Virus record (IMG/VR): IMGVR_UViG_2563366972_000001
Span: 1 to 11,846 of that record
Length of the DNA stretch: 11,846 nt
Origin: a virus
Taxonomy: Duplodnaviria > Heunggongvirae > Uroviricota > Caudoviricetes
Reading direction: 5' to 3' (one strand)
Shown: piece after piece, positions 1-7,521 of the stretch
Layout of the letters: each line of letters opens with the position of its first letter
Numbering within the stretch: the stretch's first letter is position 1
Notes under the pieces: model-generated
Told to the model about the DNA's origin: nothing
What the model saw: the letters and a program-made list of their open reading frames with translations, nothing else
Database searches by the model: none
Made by a program: the position numbers and the translations under genes

Positions 1-2940
1 ATGCTGTCAGACATAGCGGTCTGCCTGATCCGCTATGTGAAAAATCCCGATTTATGCCCTGCTGAATTGCTGCCATGGCTGGCCTGGGAAATGGCGGTGG
101 ATACCTGGAATGAACACTGGACGGAGACGGAAAAAAGGTCTGCGATAAAACGTGCTGCTTACATCCACCGCCACAGAGGGACTAAAGCGGCGCTGATGGC
201 ATCGCTGGCTGACAGTCCCTTCCGGTCGCAGATTGTTGAGTGGTATGAGCAGACCCCACCCGGGGAGCCGTATACCTTTCGTCTGAACGTGGAGCAGAAG
301 GATTTACCGGTGCTGATGAATGATCATCAGGATCTGAAGCATGCGGTGCTTCGTGCGAAAAATCTGCGCTCATGGTTTTCGGTTCACGTTTATGGTCGCA
401 GTGCAGGCCAGGTTTATGCAGCCGGTTACGCCTGTGCCACCGAATATATAAGGAGCCGCATTTTTCCGACCGGTATCACCCTGACGGAAACGGAAGTCTG
501 GCTGGAGCCCGGGGAATGTCGTTTTATCGGCGTCACTATCCTGCCACCGGAGGCGGAAGACAAAAGTTTCACTGTCCGGGTTGCAGAGCCTGGTTGTGTC
601 ACAGCCACCCTGGCGGAAGGCGGTTTTCTACTGACGGGACAGACGTACGGAGAATGCCAGGTTACCGTGACCACCCTCAACGGTATCAGTTGCACGGTCA
701 GCGTGAAGGTGGTTCCGGTGCTGGCGTTTGTCTCCCGGGTGGAGTCTGCTGACCGGCCCTTATTTTTTGTCCGGCCTGAAAACGCTGATTTCCTGATTAA
801 TTACGGTGACGGTGATAACAGAGAGTATGCGCTCAGGAGTACAAATTCCGGTGTGCTGTATGGTGTATACGCCACACGCCCGCTGACGGAGGGTACCGAA
901 TATCTTATTACCGTAAAAAACCCCGGGCAGGCCACGCTGCAACGCACAGCAGACGCGTTCTCCGCCGCCCTGAATCCGGTCACGGAGCTGGTTCGTTATA
1001 CGGGAACAGTGAGTTCATTAGCGTCGTTTGTCAGTGGACAGCGAAACCTGGTCACTGTACATGACGACGCCTTTAAGGGACTGCAGGGGGTACGGGACTG
1101 TTACAGCCTGTTTACTGGTTGTACCGCACTGGAGACGGTTCCCGCCACACTCTTCGCCGGCTTCACTGAGGCCCGGAGTTTCAGAGGCGTCTTCAGTAAT
1201 TGTACCTCGCTGTCAGCTGTCCCTGACGGCTTATTCCGTGGTCTGGAGAACGCGGGTACGTTTGACAGTGCATTTTATGGCTGCAGCGCGTTGCAGACGG
1301 TGGGGCGAGACCTGTTTTCAGGCTGCACATCGGCCAAGGATTTTGGCAGGCTTTTTTATAACTGTACCTCACTGACCAGTATCGGCGAGGGGCTGTTTAC
1401 TGGCTGTGTCAGTGCCACGCAGTTCAGGGAGGCGTTTTATTCCTGCAGTCGACTGGCGACCATTCCCGGAGGTATCTTCAGCCATGTGCCTGGCGGGGAT
1501 TTTTCCCGGACATTCAGCAAATGTACGTCACTGACGGCGGTACCTTCCGGGATGTTCAGCCCGTGCATCCGCTCAACGACATTCCGGGAGGCATTTATGG
1601 ACTGCAGTGCATTACAGTCCCTCCCGGATGGCCTGTTTGAAAATCTGACCAGCGTCACCACCTTCAACAGTGTGTTCAGAAACTGTACGGCGCTGCGTAC
1701 CACCGGAGACCATCTGTTCCGTAACTGCACGGGGGCAGGAGATTTTTCTTTCGCATTTTACGGTGATAAATCTCTGCAAAGCACCGGAGAGGGGCTTCTG
1801 GCAGGCTGTACCGGTGCAAAAGACTTTGCTTCGGCATTTTATAACTGCCGGGTGCTGAGCGTAATGCCGGATTTTGGTGACTGCCGTGAGCTGACGACCC
1901 TTCATTCTGCATTTCGTAACTGCGAGTCACTGACGGAGATCCCTGACGGTGCGTTCAGAGGGGCTGAAAATCTCATCAACGTGTATAACGCCTTTATGGC
2001 GTGTTCCGGTCTGCTGCGCGTGGGGGAACGTGTATTCAGTGACTGCACCGCCCTGACACAGGTCCGGGGGCTGTTCGTCGACTGTGTCTCGCTGCGCTCT
2101 GTTGGAGCCCGCTTATTTGACGGGTGCTCAGAAATTAAAGAGCTACTGGAGGTATTCAGGAACTGCCGCGCTCTGCGCACCCTGCCGCTGATGCTGTTTG
2201 GCAATGTTCCCGGAGTCACCTATCTCTGGATGACGTTCAGTGGCTGCATTTCGCTGGAAAGCCTCCCGGACGACCTGTTTGGAGCCATGACGAAACTGAC
2301 GACCGCCAGGGGTATTTTTTATTCCTGCACATCACTGACCACTGTTCCGCCCGGTGTGTTTGAGCACAATCCGCTGCTGGTTACGGTGGAGAGTGCTTTT
2401 GCGGGATGTACAGCGCTGCAGACCGTACCGGAGTCGCTGTTTGCTGCCTGTCCGCTGATATCCGTCTTCCTGAGTGCGTTTTCTGAAACCGGACTGGTCT
2501 CAGTGCCTGCAGGGCTGTTCCGTCACAACCTGCACGTCACCACGTTCAGTAAGGTGTTTATGAAATGTTCCCGTCTGGAGGTGGTCCCCGCGGATCTGTT
2601 TTCCGGTAACAGTCTGGCCACGGATTTCAGCTATGCGTTCAGCCAGTGCACATCACTGAAACAGGCGGAAACAGGCTTGCTTTCCGGTACAGCGGTATCG
2701 GATGCCGGGCACCTCTTTGACAGATGTGTATCACTGGAAAGTATTGTGGAGGCGATTTTCAGCCCGGATTTTTTCAGTACGGTGACGGATGTAAGAAGCG
2801 CGTTTGAAGGGTGTGTGAAGCTGCGCGGGCACGGGCTGTCATTTATCAGCAGACTGCCTGAGCAGGTCATCCATGCAAGAACACTGTTTCAGTGCACAGC
2901 ACTGGACGATTACGGCGAATTGCCGACAGGATGGAGTTAA
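1..2940 (+). CDS. 5'-partial baseplate wedge protein (P2 gpI-like) fused in frame to an ~820-aa C-terminal extension: beta-rich, possibly Ig-like, segment plus tandem Cys-containing LRR-like repeats
   Basis: One uninterrupted frame from window position 1 to TAA at 2938-2940; the window starts inside the gene, so the true start lies upstream. Residues ~1-155 carry the tail-protein-I hallmark 'NPDLCPAELLPWLAWEMAVDTWNEHWTETEKRSAIKRAAY...EWYEQTPPGEPYTFRLNV', which aligns to my recollection of P2 gpI (NPDTCPANLLPWLAWAFSVDRWDEKW...). Where gpI normally ends (~nt 465) the frame continues for >800 aa. Residues ~355-979 are ~22 repeats of ~27 aa with motif F-x-x-C-[TS]-x-L-x-x-[VI]-P-x-x-L-F. Confidence 0.8.
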   Translation: MLSDIAVCLIRYVKNPDLCPAELLPWLAWEMAVDTWNEHWTETEKRSAIKRAAYIHRHRGTKAALMASLADSPFRSQIVEWYEQTPPGEPYTFRLNVEQKDLPVLMNDHQDLKHAVLRAKNLRSWFSVHVYGRSAGQVYAAGYACATEYIRSRIFPTGITLTETEVWLEPGECRFIGVTILPPEAEDKSFTVRVAEPGCVTATLAEGGFLLTGQTYGECQVTVTTLNGISCTVSVKVVPVLAFVSRVESADRPLFFVRPENADFLINYGDGDNREYALRSTNSGVLYGVYATRPLTEGTEYLITVKNPGQATLQRTADAFSAALNPVTELVRYTGTVSSLASFVSGQRNLVTVHDDAFKGLQGVRDCYSLFTGCTALETVPATLFAGFTEARSFRGVFSNCTSLSAVPDGLFRGLENAGTFDSAFYGCSALQTVGRDLFSGCTSAKDFGRLFYNCTSLTSIGEGLFTGCVSATQFREAFYSCSRLATIPGGIFSHVPGGDFSRTFSKCTSLTAVPSGMFSPCIRSTTFREAFMDCSALQSLPDGLFENLTSVTTFNSVFRNCTALRTTGDHLFRNCTGAGDFSFAFYGDKSLQSTGEGLLAGCTGAKDFASAFYNCRVLSVMPDFGDCRELTTLHSAFRNCESLTEIPDGAFRGAENLINVYNAFMACSGLLRVGERVFSDCTALTQVRGLFVDCVSLRSVGARLFDGCSEIKELLEVFRNCRALRTLPLMLFGNVPGVTYLWMTFSGCISLESLPDDLFGAMTKLTTARGIFYSCTSLTTVPPGVFEHNPLLVTVESAFAGCTALQTVPESLFAACPLISVFLSAFSETGLVSVPAGLFRHNLHVTTFSKVFMKCSRLEVVPADLFSGNSLATDFSYAFSQCTSLKQAETGLLSGTAVSDAGHLFDRCVSLESIVEAIFSPDFFSTVTDVRSAFEGCVKLRGHGLSFISRLPEQVIHARTLFQCTALDDYGELPTGWS
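1063..2937 (+). repeat. Protein-level tandem repeat array (~22 units x ~81 nt) inside the gpI-fusion ORF; leucine-rich-repeat-like with one conserved Cys per unit
   Basis: Translation shows recurring units such as 'FSNCTSLSAVPDGLFRGLENAGTFDSA', 'FYNCTSLTSIGEGLFTGCVSATQFREA', 'FSKCTSLTAVPSGMFSPCIRSTTFREA', 'FYSCTSLTTVPPGVFEHNPLLVTVESA'. Units are diverged at nucleotide level, so this is an old internal repeat, not a recent duplication. Confidence 0.7.
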
Positions 2941-2942
2941 CC

Positions 2943-3158
2943 ATGACGTTCGTTCAGATGAAGACGTTAATTCATTTCTGCCAGACGGACAGTTGTTTCG
3001 TTGCGTACCTGCAGACACTGGCCCGGGCCGGGGTTCTGGTGATTAACGACGGAGACATTGATGAAGAGAAAAAAGAGGTCAGCCCGGAACTCCGTGACCG
3101 CCTTGTCCGTGTATTTGGTCTGACCACAGAGGAGGCTGTATGTCCGGACTTGTCCTGA
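2943..3158 (+). CDS. Small hypothetical protein (~71 aa) between the gpI-fusion gene and tail fiber H
   Basis: ATG at 2943 preceded by GGAG (2933-2936) with 6-nt spacing. Ends at TGA 3156-3158, overlapping the H start at 3140. Alternative in-frame starts at ATG 2931 or GTG 2892. No family recognised from the translation (MTFVQMKTLIHFCQTDSCFVAYLQTLARAGVLVINDGDIDEEKKEV...). Confidence 0.45.
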   Translation: MTFVQMKTLIHFCQTDSCFVAYLQTLARAGVLVINDGDIDEEKKEVSPELRDRLVRVFGLTTEEAVCPDLS

Positions 3159-4567
3159 CGCTGGCCGGGGCCAGGGAGATTGAAGCCGCCTGGCAGGCCG
3201 GTAAAACGGTTGTTCTGTCAGATGTGGTACTGGGTGACGGTGGTGACGGAAACCTGCCGGATACACCGGATGATATGGCGGCGGTCACGCAGTTGTATGG
3301 GCCGTTTGGCAGTGAACCCTTTTCCACAGCCGGCAGTGACGAAGGGATGATCAGTGGTCAGGTGGTGATTGACTGCAAAAAATATCCGGGAAAAATCCTG
3401 CGTGAACTGGGGCTGCGCAGTCGTTCAGGTACGCTGATTGCTTACGGGCGCTATCCGGATACGTATCTGCCTGCCCAGACGGATTCCATTGTGAAAGAAG
3501 TGATTATCACACTGGTGCTGACACTGACGCATGCGGAAAGTGTGGTGGTGGAAATTGACCCGAACAGGGCCATTATTACTCAGGAAATCGGAGACAGACG
3601 CTATCTGCAACGAAAAAAGAATCTTTCGGATGTGGAAGACAAGGATGAGGCTGTTGAAAACCTCGGATTAAAACCCACGGTGGACAAGGCAAAAAATGCC
3701 GTTCAGCGTGATGGTGACACCATGACCGGGGAACTGAAAATCCGTGGCGTTAATGCGCTGAGGATTTTCAACGACGCTTTTGGCCTTATTTTTCGTCGTT
3801 CGGAAGAGTGCCTGCATCTTATCCCTACCAGTGAAGGTCAGGGCGAGAATGGCGATATTGGTCCACTTCGACCGTTCACTATTAATCTGCGGACGGGTGA
3901 AATATCCATGTCGCATAAAGTGTCTGTTGGCGGCGGTTCTCAGGTCAATGGTGCGCTGGGTATCGGCGTTCAGAACGCGCTGGGCGGAAACTCAATTGCT
4001 TTCGGGGATAACGATACAGGTATAAAACAAAACGGCGACGGCATTCTGGATGTTTATGCGAATGGACAGCATGTATTTCGTTTCCAGAATGGTGTGGCGA
4101 TAGCGTTAAAAAATATTCAGGCCGGAAATGCTAAAAAATTCACGTTATCCAGCGCCAACAACTCCACGAAAAACGCAACGTTTAATTTATGGGGTAATTC
4201 ATCCCGACCTGTAGTTGCAGAGCTTGGTGATGATTCCGGCTGGCATTTTTACAGCCAGAGAAATACCGATGGCAGTATCACATTCGCTGTAAACGGACAG
4301 ATGACCCCATCAAACTATGGAAATTTCGATGCCCGTTATCAGCAGCGAAATGGCGGCGTGCAGGATGTGCGTTATGGTTCCGAAATGTTCTATAACCCTG
4401 GGGGAAATGAAATTTCCTGGACATTTCGCTCACCTGCAGGCTACGGGTTATCCGGTATTAATGTGCAGGAAACCGGAAGTAATTCGGCAGATAACATCGG
4501 CGGCGTGTATTACCGTCCGCTTCAGAAACTGATTAATGGCACCTGGTATAACGTGGCGAGTGTTTAA
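3140..4567 (+). CDS. H: Tail fiber protein (P2 gpH-like) with P2-type C-terminal receptor-binding region
   Basis: ATG at 3140 preceded by GAGGAGG. N-terminus 'LTLAGAREIEAAW...VVLGDGGDG' resembles the baseplate-attachment N-terminus of P2/Mu fibers. C-terminal ~200 aa 'NALGGNSIAFGDNDTGIKQNGDGILDVYANGQHVFRFQNGVAIALKNIQAG...RPVVAELGDDSGWHFYSQRNTDGSITFAVNGQMTPSNYGNFDARY...INGTWYNVASV' closely matches the remembered P2 gpH C-terminus. At 475 aa it is shorter than P2 gpH (669 aa as I recall). Confidence 0.9.
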   Translation: MSGLVLTLAGAREIEAAWQAGKTVVLSDVVLGDGGDGNLPDTPDDMAAVTQLYGPFGSEPFSTAGSDEGMISGQVVIDCKKYPGKILRELGLRSRSGTLIAYGRYPDTYLPAQTDSIVKEVIITLVLTLTHAESVVVEIDPNRAIITQEIGDRRYLQRKKNLSDVEDKDEAVENLGLKPTVDKAKNAVQRDGDTMTGELKIRGVNALRIFNDAFGLIFRRSEECLHLIPTSEGQGENGDIGPLRPFTINLRTGEISMSHKVSVGGGSQVNGALGIGVQNALGGNSIAFGDNDTGIKQNGDGILDVYANGQHVFRFQNGVAIALKNIQAGNAKKFTLSSANNSTKNATFNLWGNSSRPVVAELGDDSGWHFYSQRNTDGSITFAVNGQMTPSNYGNFDARYQQRNGGVQDVRYGSEMFYNPGGNEISWTFRSPAGYGLSGINVQETGSNSADNIGGVYYRPLQKLINGTWYNVASV

Positions 4568-4569
4568 CA

Positions 4570-5112
4570 ATGTTACATTTAAAAAATATTACTGCGGGTA
4601 ATCCGAAAACCGCGGAACAATATCAGATGACAAAACAACATGGTATCACCTGGCTTTTTTCGGAAGATGACAAAAACTGGTATGAAGAGCTGAAAAATTT
4701 TGCCAGTGACACCATAAAAATGGTTTACACCGGAGACGGGCGCGTGGTGTGGGTCGGTAAGGATGTGACAGGCATTGAACCCCGTAACGCCAGTGTTATT
4801 GAAGTTCCTGATATTACCGCTAATCGCCGTATTACCGTGCCTGGTTACTGGTTTTACCGCGACGATAAATTTGTCTTCGACTACAAACTTAAAGCGGAAG
4901 ATGAGCGCGATGCCCTGTTAAAACAGGTCAGCATCATGACCAGCGAGTGGGAAAAAGACCTGCTGCCGGGATTAATCAGTGACGAAGACAGGGAGAAGCT
5001 GAAAGCGTACCGCATTTACGCGAAATCGCTGCAGGCGATGGATTTCAGCGCTATTACGGATAAGACCACATACAACAATATTAGCTGGCCTGAGCATCCA
5101 CAAAATACCTGA
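4570..5112 (+). CDS. G: Tail fiber assembly chaperone (P2 gpG-like)
   Basis: Starts 2 nt after the H stop. N-terminus 'MLHLKNITAGNPKTAEQYQMTK...WYEELKNF..DTIKMVY' and 'VIEVPDITANRR' match the remembered P2 gpG ([22 protein letters not shown]...WYEEVKNF...VVEVPDITSNRR). Confidence 0.85.
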   Translation: MLHLKNITAGNPKTAEQYQMTKQHGITWLFSEDDKNWYEELKNFASDTIKMVYTGDGRVVWVGKDVTGIEPRNASVIEVPDITANRRITVPGYWFYRDDKFVFDYKLKAEDERDALLKQVSIMTSEWEKDLLPGLISDEDREKLKAYRIYAKSLQAMDFSAITDKTTYNNISWPEHPQNT

Positions 5113-5130
5113 AAAAGAAGTTAATCATCT

Positions 5131-5153
5131 GACCGCCTGAGGGCGGTTTTTTT
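5131..5153 (+). terminator. Rho-independent terminator-like hairpin downstream of G
   Basis: Stem CCGCC (5133-5137), loop TGAG, stem GGCGG (5142-5146), then a 7-T run (5147-5153). Lies 19 nt after the G stop and just upstream of the sheath RBS. Confidence 0.65.
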
Positions 5154-5166
5154 ATGGGAGAAATGT

Positions 5167-6642
5167 ATGTCCGGATTACATGGTGTTGAAACCATTGAAC
5201 TGACAACAGGCACGGTTGCCGTGCAGACCATCTCCACGGCAGTGATTGGCCTGGTGGGGACTGCGCCGGGCGCCTCCGGCGGTGTGTGCGCTTCCGGTAC
5301 TGCTGGCTCGTGGCTGCTGGGAACGGCGCTGGATTTCACGGCGAAACAGGAGGGCCGGGTCGGCAATAAGATTTCGGTGGTTGCCGTCGCGGCCACAGAA
5401 CAAAGCGCGCAGACAGTGGTCTCGCTGAAAGGTACGACCCTGACGATAACGCTGGGGACGGATGAGCACAGCCAGGTTAACGCCACGGTGGAGCGTGTGA
5501 CTGAAGTGGTGAATGCGCTGGGGGATTCGCCTGTGACGGCGGCTGTCAGCACCCTGAATGCAGGAGACGCTGAAAATAAAGTGGTGTTGCCGTTCAGCCT
5601 GACGTTATCCGGCGGAGAAGATGAGGCGTTCCCGGTCAATACACCAGTGGTGGTGGCAGGAGCCATTACTCAGGCAGGGAAACTGGGCACAGCCGGAACA
5701 TTATACCCGGCCCTGCGAGATATTTTTGACCAGACTGGTGCGATGGTGATTGTGGTGCGCGCAGAAAGTAAAACAAAGGCGAAAGAGGCCGAACAGCGTG
5801 CGGCGGTGATTCAGGCCATGGAGGCGCTGACAGAAAGTAAGGGCGTGACAGGCTATCAACCGCGCATCCTCATTGCCACGGGGTACAGTGAGGATGATGG
5901 CGTGGCAAAGGCGCTGGAAACGTATGCCGTGAAGCTGCGGGCTGTGGCCTATATTGACTCGCCCTCAATGGCAACGCCGCAGGATGTGGTTCAGCGTCGC
6001 GCGTCCTTTGGCGGACGCGTGGAGCTTCTGCGTCCGCGCGTATCAGTGACGGATGACAGCGGGCAGACGGTGTTTCGTCCGTATTCGGCGCGCGCTGCCG
6101 GGCTGCGTGCCCGTATTGATTACGAAAAAGGGTGGTGGTGGTCCAAATCAAACCAGGACGTGATGAATATCACCGGTCTGGAGCAGGTGGATACGTTTAT
6201 TCTCGGGGAGCAGAACTGCACGGCAAACCTGCTGAACATGGAAAATATCTCCACCATTATTCGTCACGATGGTTTTAAACACTGGGGCAACCGTCTGTGT
6301 TCATCCCACAGTCAGTGGCGTTTTGAGCCGGTACGCCGTACTGCAGATGTGATTGAGGACAGCATTCAGGAGGCCATGCTGCCTTATGTCGATCGTCCGC
6401 TTGATCGGGATGTGGCAGACGACATTCTTGGCAGCATTAATGCCTATATGCGTCAGCTTAAAAATCTGGGCGCGATCCACGGAGGCAGTGCATGGCTGAA
6501 CGATGAACTGAACACTGCAGAAACCCTGGCTGCAGGGCAGTTGTATATCGATTATGACTTTGGGCCGAAGTCACCACTGGAGCGCCTGACACTGCGGGCG
6601 ATGATTAACAATAAACTGGCGCTGGAGGAGCTGACGGTATGA
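5167..6642 (+). CDS. FI: Contractile tail sheath protein (P2 gpFI-like) with an extra N-proximal insertion domain
   Basis: ATG at 5167 with GGGAG at 5156-5160. N-terminus 'MSGLHGVETIEL..GT..V.TISTAVIGLVGTA' and the C-terminal half 'PRILIATGYSED...RAAGLRARIDYEKGWW...IIRHDGFKHWGNRLCS...ETLAAGQLYIDYDFGPKSPLERLTLR' match the remembered P2 FI. At 491 aa it is about 95 aa longer than P2 FI. Confidence 0.9.
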   Translation: MSGLHGVETIELTTGTVAVQTISTAVIGLVGTAPGASGGVCASGTAGSWLLGTALDFTAKQEGRVGNKISVVAVAATEQSAQTVVSLKGTTLTITLGTDEHSQVNATVERVTEVVNALGDSPVTAAVSTLNAGDAENKVVLPFSLTLSGGEDEAFPVNTPVVVAGAITQAGKLGTAGTLYPALRDIFDQTGAMVIVVRAESKTKAKEAEQRAAVIQAMEALTESKGVTGYQPRILIATGYSEDDGVAKALETYAVKLRAVAYIDSPSMATPQDVVQRRASFGGRVELLRPRVSVTDDSGQTVFRPYSARAAGLRARIDYEKGWWWSKSNQDVMNITGLEQVDTFILGEQNCTANLLNMENISTIIRHDGFKHWGNRLCSSHSQWRFEPVRRTADVIEDSIQEAMLPYVDRPLDRDVADDILGSINAYMRQLKNLGAIHGGSAWLNDELNTAETLAAGQLYIDYDFGPKSPLERLTLRAMINNKLALEELTV

Positions 6643-7157
6643 TGACGGGTGAAAAAAAACTGTTGCGCGCATGGGCGTTATTTCTTCCTGGCGGGATCCG
6701 TCTTCAGGGGGCGCATGAATACACGCCGCCTGCCATTAATATCACGACAGTGGATATCAAAACCGGCGCAATGGATGCACCAGTGGCAGTGGATGACGGC
6801 ATGGAGGCGCTGACCTGCTCATTTAAGATTTATGGCTACGATGTTGCCATGCTGACCCTGCTGGGATTACAGGCCGGGCTTTATTCGCCGGAGATTGTTG
6901 TGCGTCAGGCTTACCGGGTGGGAAATGCGACCAGCGGGGAGGTGGAGACACTGCAGGGGATGATCACCAGTATCACACCAGATGCGCGTCCGGCGACATC
7001 ACAGGCGGATGCCTCGGTGACAGTGGAAATGTCGCTGAGTTATTACCGTCAGGCTGTCGACGGTCTGGAAACCATCTGCATTATTCCGGAGGAATTTGTA
7101 CGTCGTATTAACGGCGTTAATGTTCTGTCGGATCTGAAAAAAATTATCCGGGTTTAA
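6639..7157 (+). CDS. FII: Tail tube protein (P2 gpFII-like)
   Basis: ATG at 6639 overlaps the sheath stop (ATGA), with GGAGGAG at 6624-6630. 172 aa, the same length as P2 FII. C-terminal 'MSLSYYRQAVDGLETICIIPEEFVRRINGVNVLSDL' resembles the tube family motif. Confidence 0.85.
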   Translation: MMTGEKKLLRAWALFLPGGIRLQGAHEYTPPAINITTVDIKTGAMDAPVAVDDGMEALTCSFKIYGYDVAMLTLLGLQAGLYSPEIVVRQAYRVGNATSGEVETLQGMITSITPDARPATSQADASVTVEMSLSYYRQAVDGLETICIIPEEFVRRINGVNVLSDLKKIIRV

Positions 7158-7176
7158 TCCCGGCATCCTGTCAAGC

Positions 7177-7205
7177 AGGCGGCTCAGGCCGCCTTTTCTA
7201 TTTTT
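7177..7205 (+). terminator. Intrinsic terminator or attenuator hairpin between tube and E
   Basis: AGGCGGC (7177-7183), loop TCAG, GCCGCCT (7188-7194) form a perfect 7-bp stem, followed by TTTTCTATTTTT. Sits 20 nt after the tube stop and before the E RBS (AGGAG 7208-7212). Confidence 0.65.
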
Positions 7206-7218
7206 AAAGGAGACGCTT

Positions 7219-7521
7219 ATGTCGGAAAAAAACAGTGTTCCCGCCAGCAGTGTGGAAATTGTGTTATCCGTGCCATATGTCACCACATCAGGACAGACGA
7301 TCACCCACGTCACCATGCGTGCGCCTACCGTCCGCGATCGTCTGTTGCATCGTCGGAGTAACAAACCGGAAGCAGAGGCTGATCTGGATATGATTGCCGG
7401 TCTGTGTGGGATGGACGCGGCAGACATGATGAACATGGAAGCGTGTGATTACCTGGCCCTGGAGCGTCAGTTTAATGTTTTTTTGCTGCCGCCGGTCCGG
7501 CGGAAGAAGAAAGCATCCTGA
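7219..7521 (+). CDS. E: Tail assembly chaperone (P2 gpE-like), zero-frame product
   Basis: ATG at 7219 with AGGAG RBS; 100 aa. 'MRAPTVRDRLLHRR...' resembles gpE. The gene position after the tube and before the tape measure is canonical. Confidence 0.8.
   Translation: MSEKNSVPASSVEIVLSVPYVTTSGQTITHVTMRAPTVRDRLLHRRSNKPEAEADLDMIAGLCGMDAADMMNMEACDYLALERQFNVFLLPPVRRKKKAS

Follow-up and report, generated by a model that had tools for sequence, protein, structure and literature searches.

A Cys-rich leucine-rich repeat array at the C-terminus of a prophage tail protein I

Carrier gene and domain architecture

The tail-gene locus analyzed here comprises 11,846 nucleotides (the whole stretch of DNA under study, hereafter the window) of the Caudoviricetes record IMGVR_UViG_2563366972_000001 of IMG/VR, and it opens with a gene whose product bears a long array of Cys-containing leucine-rich repeats (LRRs) behind a phage tail protein I. 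The 5' end of this gene lies outside the window: the first 26 codons are missing, and residue 1 of the encoded protein corresponds to residue 27 of the 196-residue gpI of the Escherichia coli SC407 prophage. The gene and the segments of its product are as follows.

1 to 2940, + strand: gene for a phage tail protein I of the P2 gpI / BW3 / Tri2 class that carries a long extension at its C-terminus, 979 codons
1 to 395, + strand: baseplate-anchoring gpI/Tri2 core, residues 1 to ~131, with weaker similarity up to about residue 155
469 to 720, + strand: Big_2-type immunoglobulin (Ig)-like domain, residues ~157-240, from Pfam and Foldseek
721 to 1029, + strand: CBM56-like beta-sandwich, residues ~241-343, from phmmer and Foldseek matches to 7quz
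1030 to 2937, + strand: array of 24 units of ~27 residues each, residues 344-979, a Cys-rich LRR solenoid of the BspA/TIGR02167 class

The class of the carrier is given by its N-terminal part, which matched the Pfam profile Tail_P2_I (PF09684) with 109.7 bits against a cut-off of 20.6 (residues 10-123, profile positions 26-139) and TIGR01634, "phage tail protein I", with 87.8 bits against a cut-off of 30.05. Similarity to Tri2 (PA0619) of the R-type pyocin baseplate (PDB 6u5b) was also found at E=8.4e-16, and the window protein scored 1669 bits with PHROG 9915, a group labeled "unknown function". A previous examination of the letters alone (hereafter the sequence-only reading) had likened the repeats to those of surface proteins of host-associated bacteria; the Tail_P2_I and Tri2 matches, in a tail-gene cluster, place them instead on a phage tail protein I, and the array makes up the C-terminal domain of a baseplate protein encoded by a prophage.

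The C-terminal extension of ~820 residues consists, in this order, of the Big_2 Ig-like domain, the CBM56-like sandwich and the LRR array. The Pfam Big_2 profile produced a weak score of 14.3 bits in the window protein and matched 17 of the 21 homologs aligned in this study. The same segment was all-beta in the AlphaFold2 model, with a predicted local distance difference test (pLDDT) value of ~90, and Foldseek aligned it with the Ig domain of lambda gpV (2l04; TMt 0.78, root-mean-square deviation 2.0) as well as with 7quz, the Big_2-CBM56 structure of the Paenibacillus beta-1,3-glucanase BglH. The similarity to 7quz was found both by phmmer (E=1e-6), in an alignment running through both domains, and by Foldseek (E~3e-5).

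Periodicity, family and predicted fold of the array

A BLOSUM62 autocorrelation of residues 355-979 (300 shuffles) revealed the strongest self-similarity at a lag of 27 residues (z=19.6), accompanied by harmonics at lags of 54 (z 12.7), 81 (z 9.9) and 107/108 and by a sub-period at 13/14 (z 6.7-7.7); no periodicity, with nothing above z=3, was seen in the N-terminal 354 residues. A hidden Markov model (HMM) of the unit, seeded with 17 clean units, recovered 21 units, to which a degenerate first unit (residues 344-370) and the last two (935-961 and 962-979) were added, totaling 24. The unit consensus reads F1-x-x-C4-[TS]-[SA]-L7-x-[TS]-[VI]10-[PG]11-[DE]-G-L14-F15-x-G-[C/L]18-x-x-[AVL]21-T-[DT]-F24-x-x-A27, in which L7 is occupied in all 24 units, F1 in 22, C4 in 21 and F15 in 20, and in which position 11 is Pro in 13 units and Gly in 8. 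Cys4 is replaced by Asp in unit 586 and deleted in unit 827, and the predicted solenoid is undisturbed in both. The 636-residue array harbors 31 Cys residues, and nine units carry an extra Cys at position 18, which was observed in all six canonical Gly11 units vs three of the 13 Pro11 units (hypergeometric p ~0.003, calculated by hand). This Cys18/Gly11 pattern, in combination with the half-period, indicates that the 27-residue unit is an old duplication of a ~13.5-residue half-unit, F-x-(G)-C-x-x-[LA]-x-beta-beta, so that each coil comprises two half-units.

At the nucleotide level, Tandem Repeats Finder detected no tandem array in positions 1-3200, a 19-nucleotide microrepeat excepted, which rules out recent slippage or a DNA tandem repeat, and the direct repeats within the array are short (14-34 nucleotides, 60-93% identity) and mostly located on the conserved F-x-x-C-x-x-L codons. 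Since a DNA tandem repeat is absent and the nucleotide similarity is short, the units are old and diverged. These results bear out much of the sequence-only reading, which had described about 22 units in 1063-2937 (in agreement with the present limits of 1030-2937 and 24 units to within one unit) sharing the motif F-x-x-C-[TS]-x-L-x-x-[VI]-P-x-x-L-F at a spacing of ~27 residues. The motif and spacing are upheld by the occupancy counts and the lag-27 signal, autocorrelation and the unit HMM both found the region to be clearly periodic, and its view of the array as old and under selection agrees with the missing DNA repeat and with a 27-residue spacing and array span that are kept in homologs of 24-46% identity.

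Profile searches revealed the family to which the array is related. The window protein matched Pfam LRR_5 (BspA-type) above the gathering threshold, with 43.4 bits against a cut-off of 27.7, a score that is the sum of weak units, two stretches reaching E<=1 and none E<=0.01. Pfam LRR_8 (35.2 bits against 27) and the NCBIfam model TIGR02167, "PARCEL repeat-containing surface protein" (42.9 bits against 30, with no single stretch significant alone), were likewise matched, and Pfam DUF285 (PF03382) had no match at E<=1 in the window protein. Among the 21 aligned homologs, 17 matched LRR_5, 19 matched TIGR02167 and 12 matched DUF285 (E<=0.01). The array thus belongs to the BspA/LRR_5 - TIGR02167 - DUF285 group, of which it represents a 27-residue Cys-rich flavor of its own, and the family borders on DUF285 rather than lying within it, because the window protein is unmatched by that profile but 12 of the 21 homologs match.

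An AlphaFold2 model built from the 21-sequence alignment had a mean pLDDT of 88.9, rising to ~95 across the repeats. Foldseek comparison with the PDB retrieved LRR solenoids, led by TLR13 (1e-8) and followed by the BspA-like Faecalibacterium protein 4gt6 (E=1.3e-7, with a template modeling (TM) score of only 0.30) and, below it, by TLR3, Toll and SHOC2; the TM-scores to these PDB solenoids were low, which points to a curvature unlike theirs. Against viral models, Foldseek retrieved many phage proteins labeled "BspA family leucine-rich repeat surface protein", "26-residue repeat" or "Internalin-like". Each coil of the model was assigned two parallel beta ladders by DSSP, one at unit positions 9-10 and the other at 23-25, in agreement with the 13/14 sub-period, and ~24 coils with a rise of ~4.8 Å would give a solenoid ~110 Å long. 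The likeness to BspA-type or DUF285-type LRRs drawn in the sequence-only reading accordingly stands at group level, by the LRR_5 and TIGR02167 scores above cut-off and the fold match to 4gt6. Its LRR_5 part is borne out by the profile and its DUF285 part fails for the window protein itself, being met with in the 12 homologs, and structure prediction yields a repeat solenoid, not a non-repeat fold.

Conservation was assessed over 21 homologs and 17 canonical units each. The highest values were found at F1 (4.24 bits), C4 (4.18), F15 (3.92) and L7 (3.91), with F24 also among the conserved positions, and the most variable positions were 25, 2, 19, 8, 26 and 23 (1.7-2.0 bits). The one Cys per unit that had drawn attention in the sequence-only reading is therefore also kept across homologs, at a level next to that of F1. 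The homologs, from phages as well as cells, retain the 27-residue spacing, mostly 30-44 Cys residues and an array of ~500-700 residues down to an identity of ~25-30%; in those of the gpI type, the array spans roughly 500-640 residues and the total length is 1005-1012 residues in most.

Two further features of the array DNA were recorded. A short local palindrome, CAGTGCACAGCACTG, at 2643-2664 / 2884-2905 arises from Q-C-T-[SA]-L codons; it faintly resembles the dyad symmetry reported for the coding DNA of PARCEL elements and has probably come about through codon choice. On the minus strand, open reading frames (ORFs) of 79-105 residues lie inside the array (1437-2219 and 2631-2870) with a 27-codon periodicity of their own (e.g., ...QFLNT...); they had no match to the repeat HMM, seem to arise incidentally from the periodicity of the coding sequence and were rejected as genes.

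Cassette exchange and recurrence on other backbones

Comparison with related prophages revealed that the extension and a small downstream ORF behave as one cassette, which together with the adjoining genes is laid out as follows.

396 to 3126, + strand: cassette (extension plus small ORF), 2.73 kb, replacing 97 nucleotides of the E. coli SC407 prophage
2943 to 3158, + strand: conserved acidic ORF of 71 residues, function unassigned in PHROG (phrog_11426 at 8.7e-39)
3140 to 4567, + strand: tail-fiber gene, gpH-like, 475 residues (Phage_tail_fib 53.5 bits; phrog_6859, tail fiber, 2.8e-139)
4570 to 5112, + strand: tail-fiber assembly chaperone (Caudo_TAP 78.5 bits)

The boundaries were set by blastn against the SC407 locus (L001), in which 6001-6395 corresponds to window 1-395 and 6493-14944 to window 3127-11575, the replaced stretch being 6396-6492; there, the 196-residue gpI is directly followed by the fiber gene. 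The flanks are otherwise ~94-97% identical to the SC407 prophage, and positions 1-395 are 97-99% identical at the nucleotide level to E. coli prophages with a short gpI. Megablast of positions 1-3200 produced no match among 50,697 phage records, and against 5,426 complete E. coli genomes it matched positions 1-395 alone, leaving the cassette unmatched. A twin of the cassette was found in a second locus (L002, 10474-13204), whose 1005-residue protein is 97% identical to residues 131-979 of the window protein and 96% identical over the full length. Between these two loci, the gpI N-terminal domain has a synonymous divergence (dS) of 0.86 and the extension a dS of 0.02-0.03; this low dS in the extension vs the high dS in the N-terminal domain argues that the cassette has recently moved between diverged backbones.

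The small ORF starts three nucleotides past the stop codon of gene I and overlaps the start of the tail-fiber gene. It had no match to any Pfam family, its AlphaFold2 model reached a pLDDT of 70.5, and Foldseek found no PDB match better than E=4. Its homologs, of 68-74 residues, include ORFs in the same slot of two other loci (L003 and L006; 33-48% identical), and in seven of seven contexts inspected a homolog lies between a Big_2-LRR baseplate gene of ~1,010-1,147 residues and a Phage_tail_fib gene, the ORF being missing from the short-gpI SC407 prophage. The 71-residue product is also 100% identical to an E. coli protein, and this identity, together with the 94-97% match to SC407, marks the locus as the tail module of a prophage from an E. 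coli-type host. Upstream of gene I, a Baseplate_J (gpJ) gene was observed in both L001 and L002, which gives the order gpJ - gene I - tail fiber in a contractile-tail cluster (gpJ as seen in L001/L002).

Beyond this lineage, the Big_2-LRR module was found on at least four baseplate lineages, always right after Baseplate_J and with a tail-fiber gene after it wherever the contig continues. It is fused to Tail_P2_I both in the lineage of the window and in P2-like prophages of Klebsiella, among them the Reipivirus ST16-OXA48phi5.4 classified by the International Committee on Taxonomy of Viruses, to Phage_Mu_Gp48 in an E. coli Mu-like prophage and to DUF2612/Phage_Wedge1 in a Pam3/E217-like tail, and it also occurs on an HP1-type N-terminus and backbone. 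The Big_2-LRR protein is abundant in Klebsiella P2-like prophages, where it is annotated merely as "tail protein I", and one Klebsiella protein cluster (P0007) holds 1,551 member sequences. In Phapecoctavirus, an LRR "tail protein" adjoins tail-fiber and colanic-acid-degrading genes. The nearest cellular relatives are BACON-LRR surface proteins of Bacteroidota, encoded in a locus resembling a polysaccharide utilization locus (PUL) with a TonB-dependent receptor, GH2 and peptidases.

Several neighboring features complete the description of these loci. Further downstream in the window lie the sheath, tube, E/E', tape measure, U, X and D genes. The gpE-like tail-assembly gene (7219-7521) contains, close to its end, a T_TTT_TTG slippery heptamer at 7479-7485 (+), after which the -1 frame is open to ~7655 and reads like gpE'; a programmed frameshift at such a heptamer is classic for tail chaperone genes. 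The distal part of the fiber gene (4094-4513, +) departs from the sequence of the twin locus, which is 96% identical elsewhere, and shows matches of 86-89% to fibers of phiP27, Rac-SA53 and an Actinobacillus phage, as in the usual mosaic swapping of fiber tips. A second tail-fiber-type gene (11091-11846, +) follows gpD and runs off the end of the window; its SC407 counterpart is annotated "prophage tail fiber N-terminal domain-containing protein", and the phage of the window therefore has two fiber genes besides the LRR extension. In Klebsiella P2-like prophages, variable cargo follows right after the short fiber gene (L003/L004, 10485-12260; L009, 6596-9060; L013, 8462-9685); it encodes AIPR, AAA_15/AAA_21 and DUF262 proteins, which look defense-type and occupy the place of the fiber chaperone.

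Possible roles of the extension and comparison with known systems

BW3 proteins (T4 gp7, PA0619 and P2 gpI) form, within a (BW2)2-BW3 heterotrimer, the periphery of the baseplate, and receptor-binding proteins attach to BW3 (PMC10811340). By the structures of relatives cited in that work, the protein would be present as one copy per wedge, six per tail. We lean, with somewhat better than balanced confidence, toward the LRR extension being an accessory receptor-binding or adhesion arm anchored on the baseplate, in view of the position of its carrier at the baseplate periphery, its Ig and CBM-like domains, its linkage to a fiber gene and its fixed core with a variable surface. Because the extension is the C-terminus of BW3, at the site where receptor-binding proteins attach, it would extend outward next to the tail fiber at each of the six wedges. 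The variable residues around the 23-25 ladder may form the ligand surface; in the alignment, the core is fixed and the surface about this ladder varies freely, an arrangement common to LRR binding faces. A spacer and possibly a glycan-binding site would be provided by the Ig and CBM-like domains, the invariant Cys4, together with Cys18 of the "G-type" units, would be buried residues of the structural ladder, and the adjacent 71-residue protein may be devoted to assembly or attachment. As a cassette, the module could travel between phages and change the binding range of the virion.

Several points weigh against such an arm. The normal tail fiber and its chaperone are retained, and the arm is therefore not needed to explain adsorption. 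No experiment or publication on the gpI-LRR architecture or its small partner was found in full-text literature searches. The assembly-factor role of the 71-residue protein is a guess, given the pLDDT of 70.5 of its model and the missing fold match. Finally, the ratio of nonsynonymous to synonymous divergence (dN/dS) of the extension against its 97% identical twin, 0.46-0.95 from 47 substitutions, is uninformative, and positive selection, considered on this ratio, was dropped for so few changes.

A broader proposal is put forward tentatively, as a possibility that we hold to be less than probable: that a mobile two-gene cassette, consisting of the Big_2 - CBM56-like - Cys-LRR arm and its ~70-residue partner, converts the BW3 of unrelated myophages (P2 gpI, Mu gp48, DUF2612/Wedge1 and HP1-type) into a second, LRR-solenoid receptor-binding device. 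As part of the same tentative proposal, this device would constitute a class of phage receptor-binding protein unlike the usual trimeric fibers and spikes, and would be common in Klebsiella and E. coli prophages.

The extension could also bind something other than a bacterium. If its ligand were animal mucus, epithelial glycans or extracellular matrix, the arm would keep the virion in the niche that its hosts inhabit, a role of the kind proposed for Ig-like capsid decorations. The tail fiber is already there for host recognition, the Big_2 and CBM-like domains are present, LRR proteins of the BspA class are typical of host-associated bacteria, and the closest cellular relatives are the Bacteroidota BACON-LRR surface proteins of the PUL-like locus; however, the module sits not on the capsid but at the baseplate periphery, where receptor-binding proteins sit, and is linked to a tail-fiber gene in every context examined, and we regard niche binding as unlikely. 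An external ligand might be lacking altogether, with the extension acting as a strut that holds or retracts the fibers, a baseplate stabilizer or a trigger gate. BW3 proteins of larger phages, such as T4 gp7, have additional structural domains (PMC10811340), the near-fixed length of 1005-1012 residues in most gpI-type homologs would suit a geometric role, and the small partner ORF and the fiber gene are always adjacent. Close prophages nevertheless function with a 196-residue gpI and no extension, the same LRR class is found in cellular surface proteins, and varying exposed positions over a fixed core are the usual signature of a binding surface, not of a protein-protein strut, so that this structural or regulatory role likewise seems improbable.

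Two other explanations concern the repeats themselves. The Cys residues of successive coils could, a possibility raised in the sequence-only reading, be joined by disulfides or bind metal, conferring on an extracellular protein added stability or a redox or metal function, as might be suggested by the 31 Cys residues of the array, with Cys4 in 21 of 24 units and Cys18 in nine, by a count of mostly 30-44 that is kept across phage and cellular homologs, and by the disulfide networks known from the tail of phage Milano (PMC10811340). But Cys4 is conserved on a par with the core Phe, which appears to fit a buried structural ladder better than a disulfide or metal ladder, and it adjoins the Asn/Cys-ladder position of LRRs in the phmmer alignment with LRRTM. 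The two units that lack it keep the predicted solenoid, no His/Cys metal-site pattern was seen in the array, and virions assemble in the reducing cytoplasm. We consider a disulfide or metal function, with these points in view, quite improbable. A strict PARCEL element, palindromic, prone to slippage and varying in unit number so as to generate surface variation, is largely refuted and retains very little probability. TIGR02167 scored above its cut-off and DUF285 matched 12 of the 21 homologs, but the window protein itself had no Pfam DUF285 match at E<=1, the period is 27 rather than 25 residues, and the array lacks the canonical W..V..M..MF...FNQ motif. The DNA shows no tandem repeat, just four weak long-range inverted pairs, 219-765 nucleotides apart, were detected, the unit HMM did not score in the reverse frames, the motif thus not being encoded on the reverse strand, and the array span is similar (roughly 500-640 residues) among gpI-type homologs.

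The repeat class is known, and the gpI-LRR phage architecture is present in databases but uncharacterized: proteins of this architecture are deposited as "phage tail protein I" or "tail protein" (cluster P0007; NC_049450 gp35), LRR proteins of the BspA type are annotated in many phages, as seen in the Foldseek search of viral models, and one paper noted, with no function given, a giant PARCEL/DUF285 ORF in a jumbo phage of Vibrio. In P2-like and Mu-like phages, trimeric tail fibers alone are normally credited with recognizing the host. An LRR solenoid on the baseplate protein at which fibers dock would amount to a second, independently evolving recognition surface, on a cassette exchanged among prophages of clinically important Enterobacteriaceae, with more than 1,500 sequences in the Klebsiella cluster alone. 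If the accessory arm does bind host or niche ligands, it would bear on prophage host range and on phage-therapy and tailocin engineering, for which the ease of re-targeting LRR scaffolds would be relevant, and would inform the function of the large uncharacterized BspA/DUF285 repeat families; if it binds nothing, the finding reduces to the correct recognition of an LRR array in a protein whose annotation as "tail protein I" already existed.

Among known systems, P2 gpI, Tri2 (PA0619) and other BW3 proteins share homology over the N-terminal ~150 residues and the same slot, after Baseplate_J and before the tail fiber; ordinary gpI/Tri2 members have ~176-196 residues, whereas the type found in the window has ~1005, with the Ig, CBM56-like and 636-residue LRR parts added. 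A close parallel is Klebsiella phage ST16-OXA48phi5.4 (Peduoviridae, Reipivirus; NC_049450), which has the same trio as gp35, gp36 and gp37: a 1008-residue gpI-Big_2-LRR gp35 annotated "tail protein I", 40% identical across the whole extension, a 70-residue ORF and a tail collar fiber gene. It differs in its true P2-type backbone, its Klebsiella host, its shorter fiber of 365 residues and the lack of a fiber chaperone after it, and is equally uncharacterized.

For the domains added to gpI, the Big_2-CBM56 of BglH (7quz) aligns with residues ~149-315 in sequence (E=1e-6) and fold at an identity of ~20%. BspA-type LRRs (LRR_5; 4gt6 and 4fs7, surface proteins of gut bacteria) have the A-F-x-x-C-x-x-L core motif in common with the array and were matched by phmmer and Foldseek. 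Unlike them, the array has a 27-residue period and a 13/14 internal duplication, many of its units contain a second Cys, and it is carried on a phage baseplate protein, whereas BspA-type carriers are secreted or lipid-anchored proteins of cells. The canonical PARCEL unit has 25 residues with a W / V..M..MF / FNQ motif, and its repeats were predicted to be amphipathic helices (Roske et al. 2010, PMC2996958). PARCEL/DUF285/TIGR02167 proteins such as Mycoplasma LppQ (PMC2996958) share with the array a pattern in which hydrophobic positions are conserved and hydrophilic ones vary, but their period is 25-26 residues against 27 and their motif differs; the array was modeled as a beta-ladder solenoid, not as amphipathic helices, and no variation in unit number was detected. 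Typical 24-residue LRRs (LRRTM, lamprey VLR and TLR ectodomains) have the L-x-x-L-P-x-G-x-F-x-x-L segment in common with the array and gave the best PDB matches in sequence and fold; compared with these, the units of the window are three residues longer and have Cys in place of the Asn ladder, and with query-normalized TM-scores of 0.1-0.25 their curvature and geometry are unmatched.

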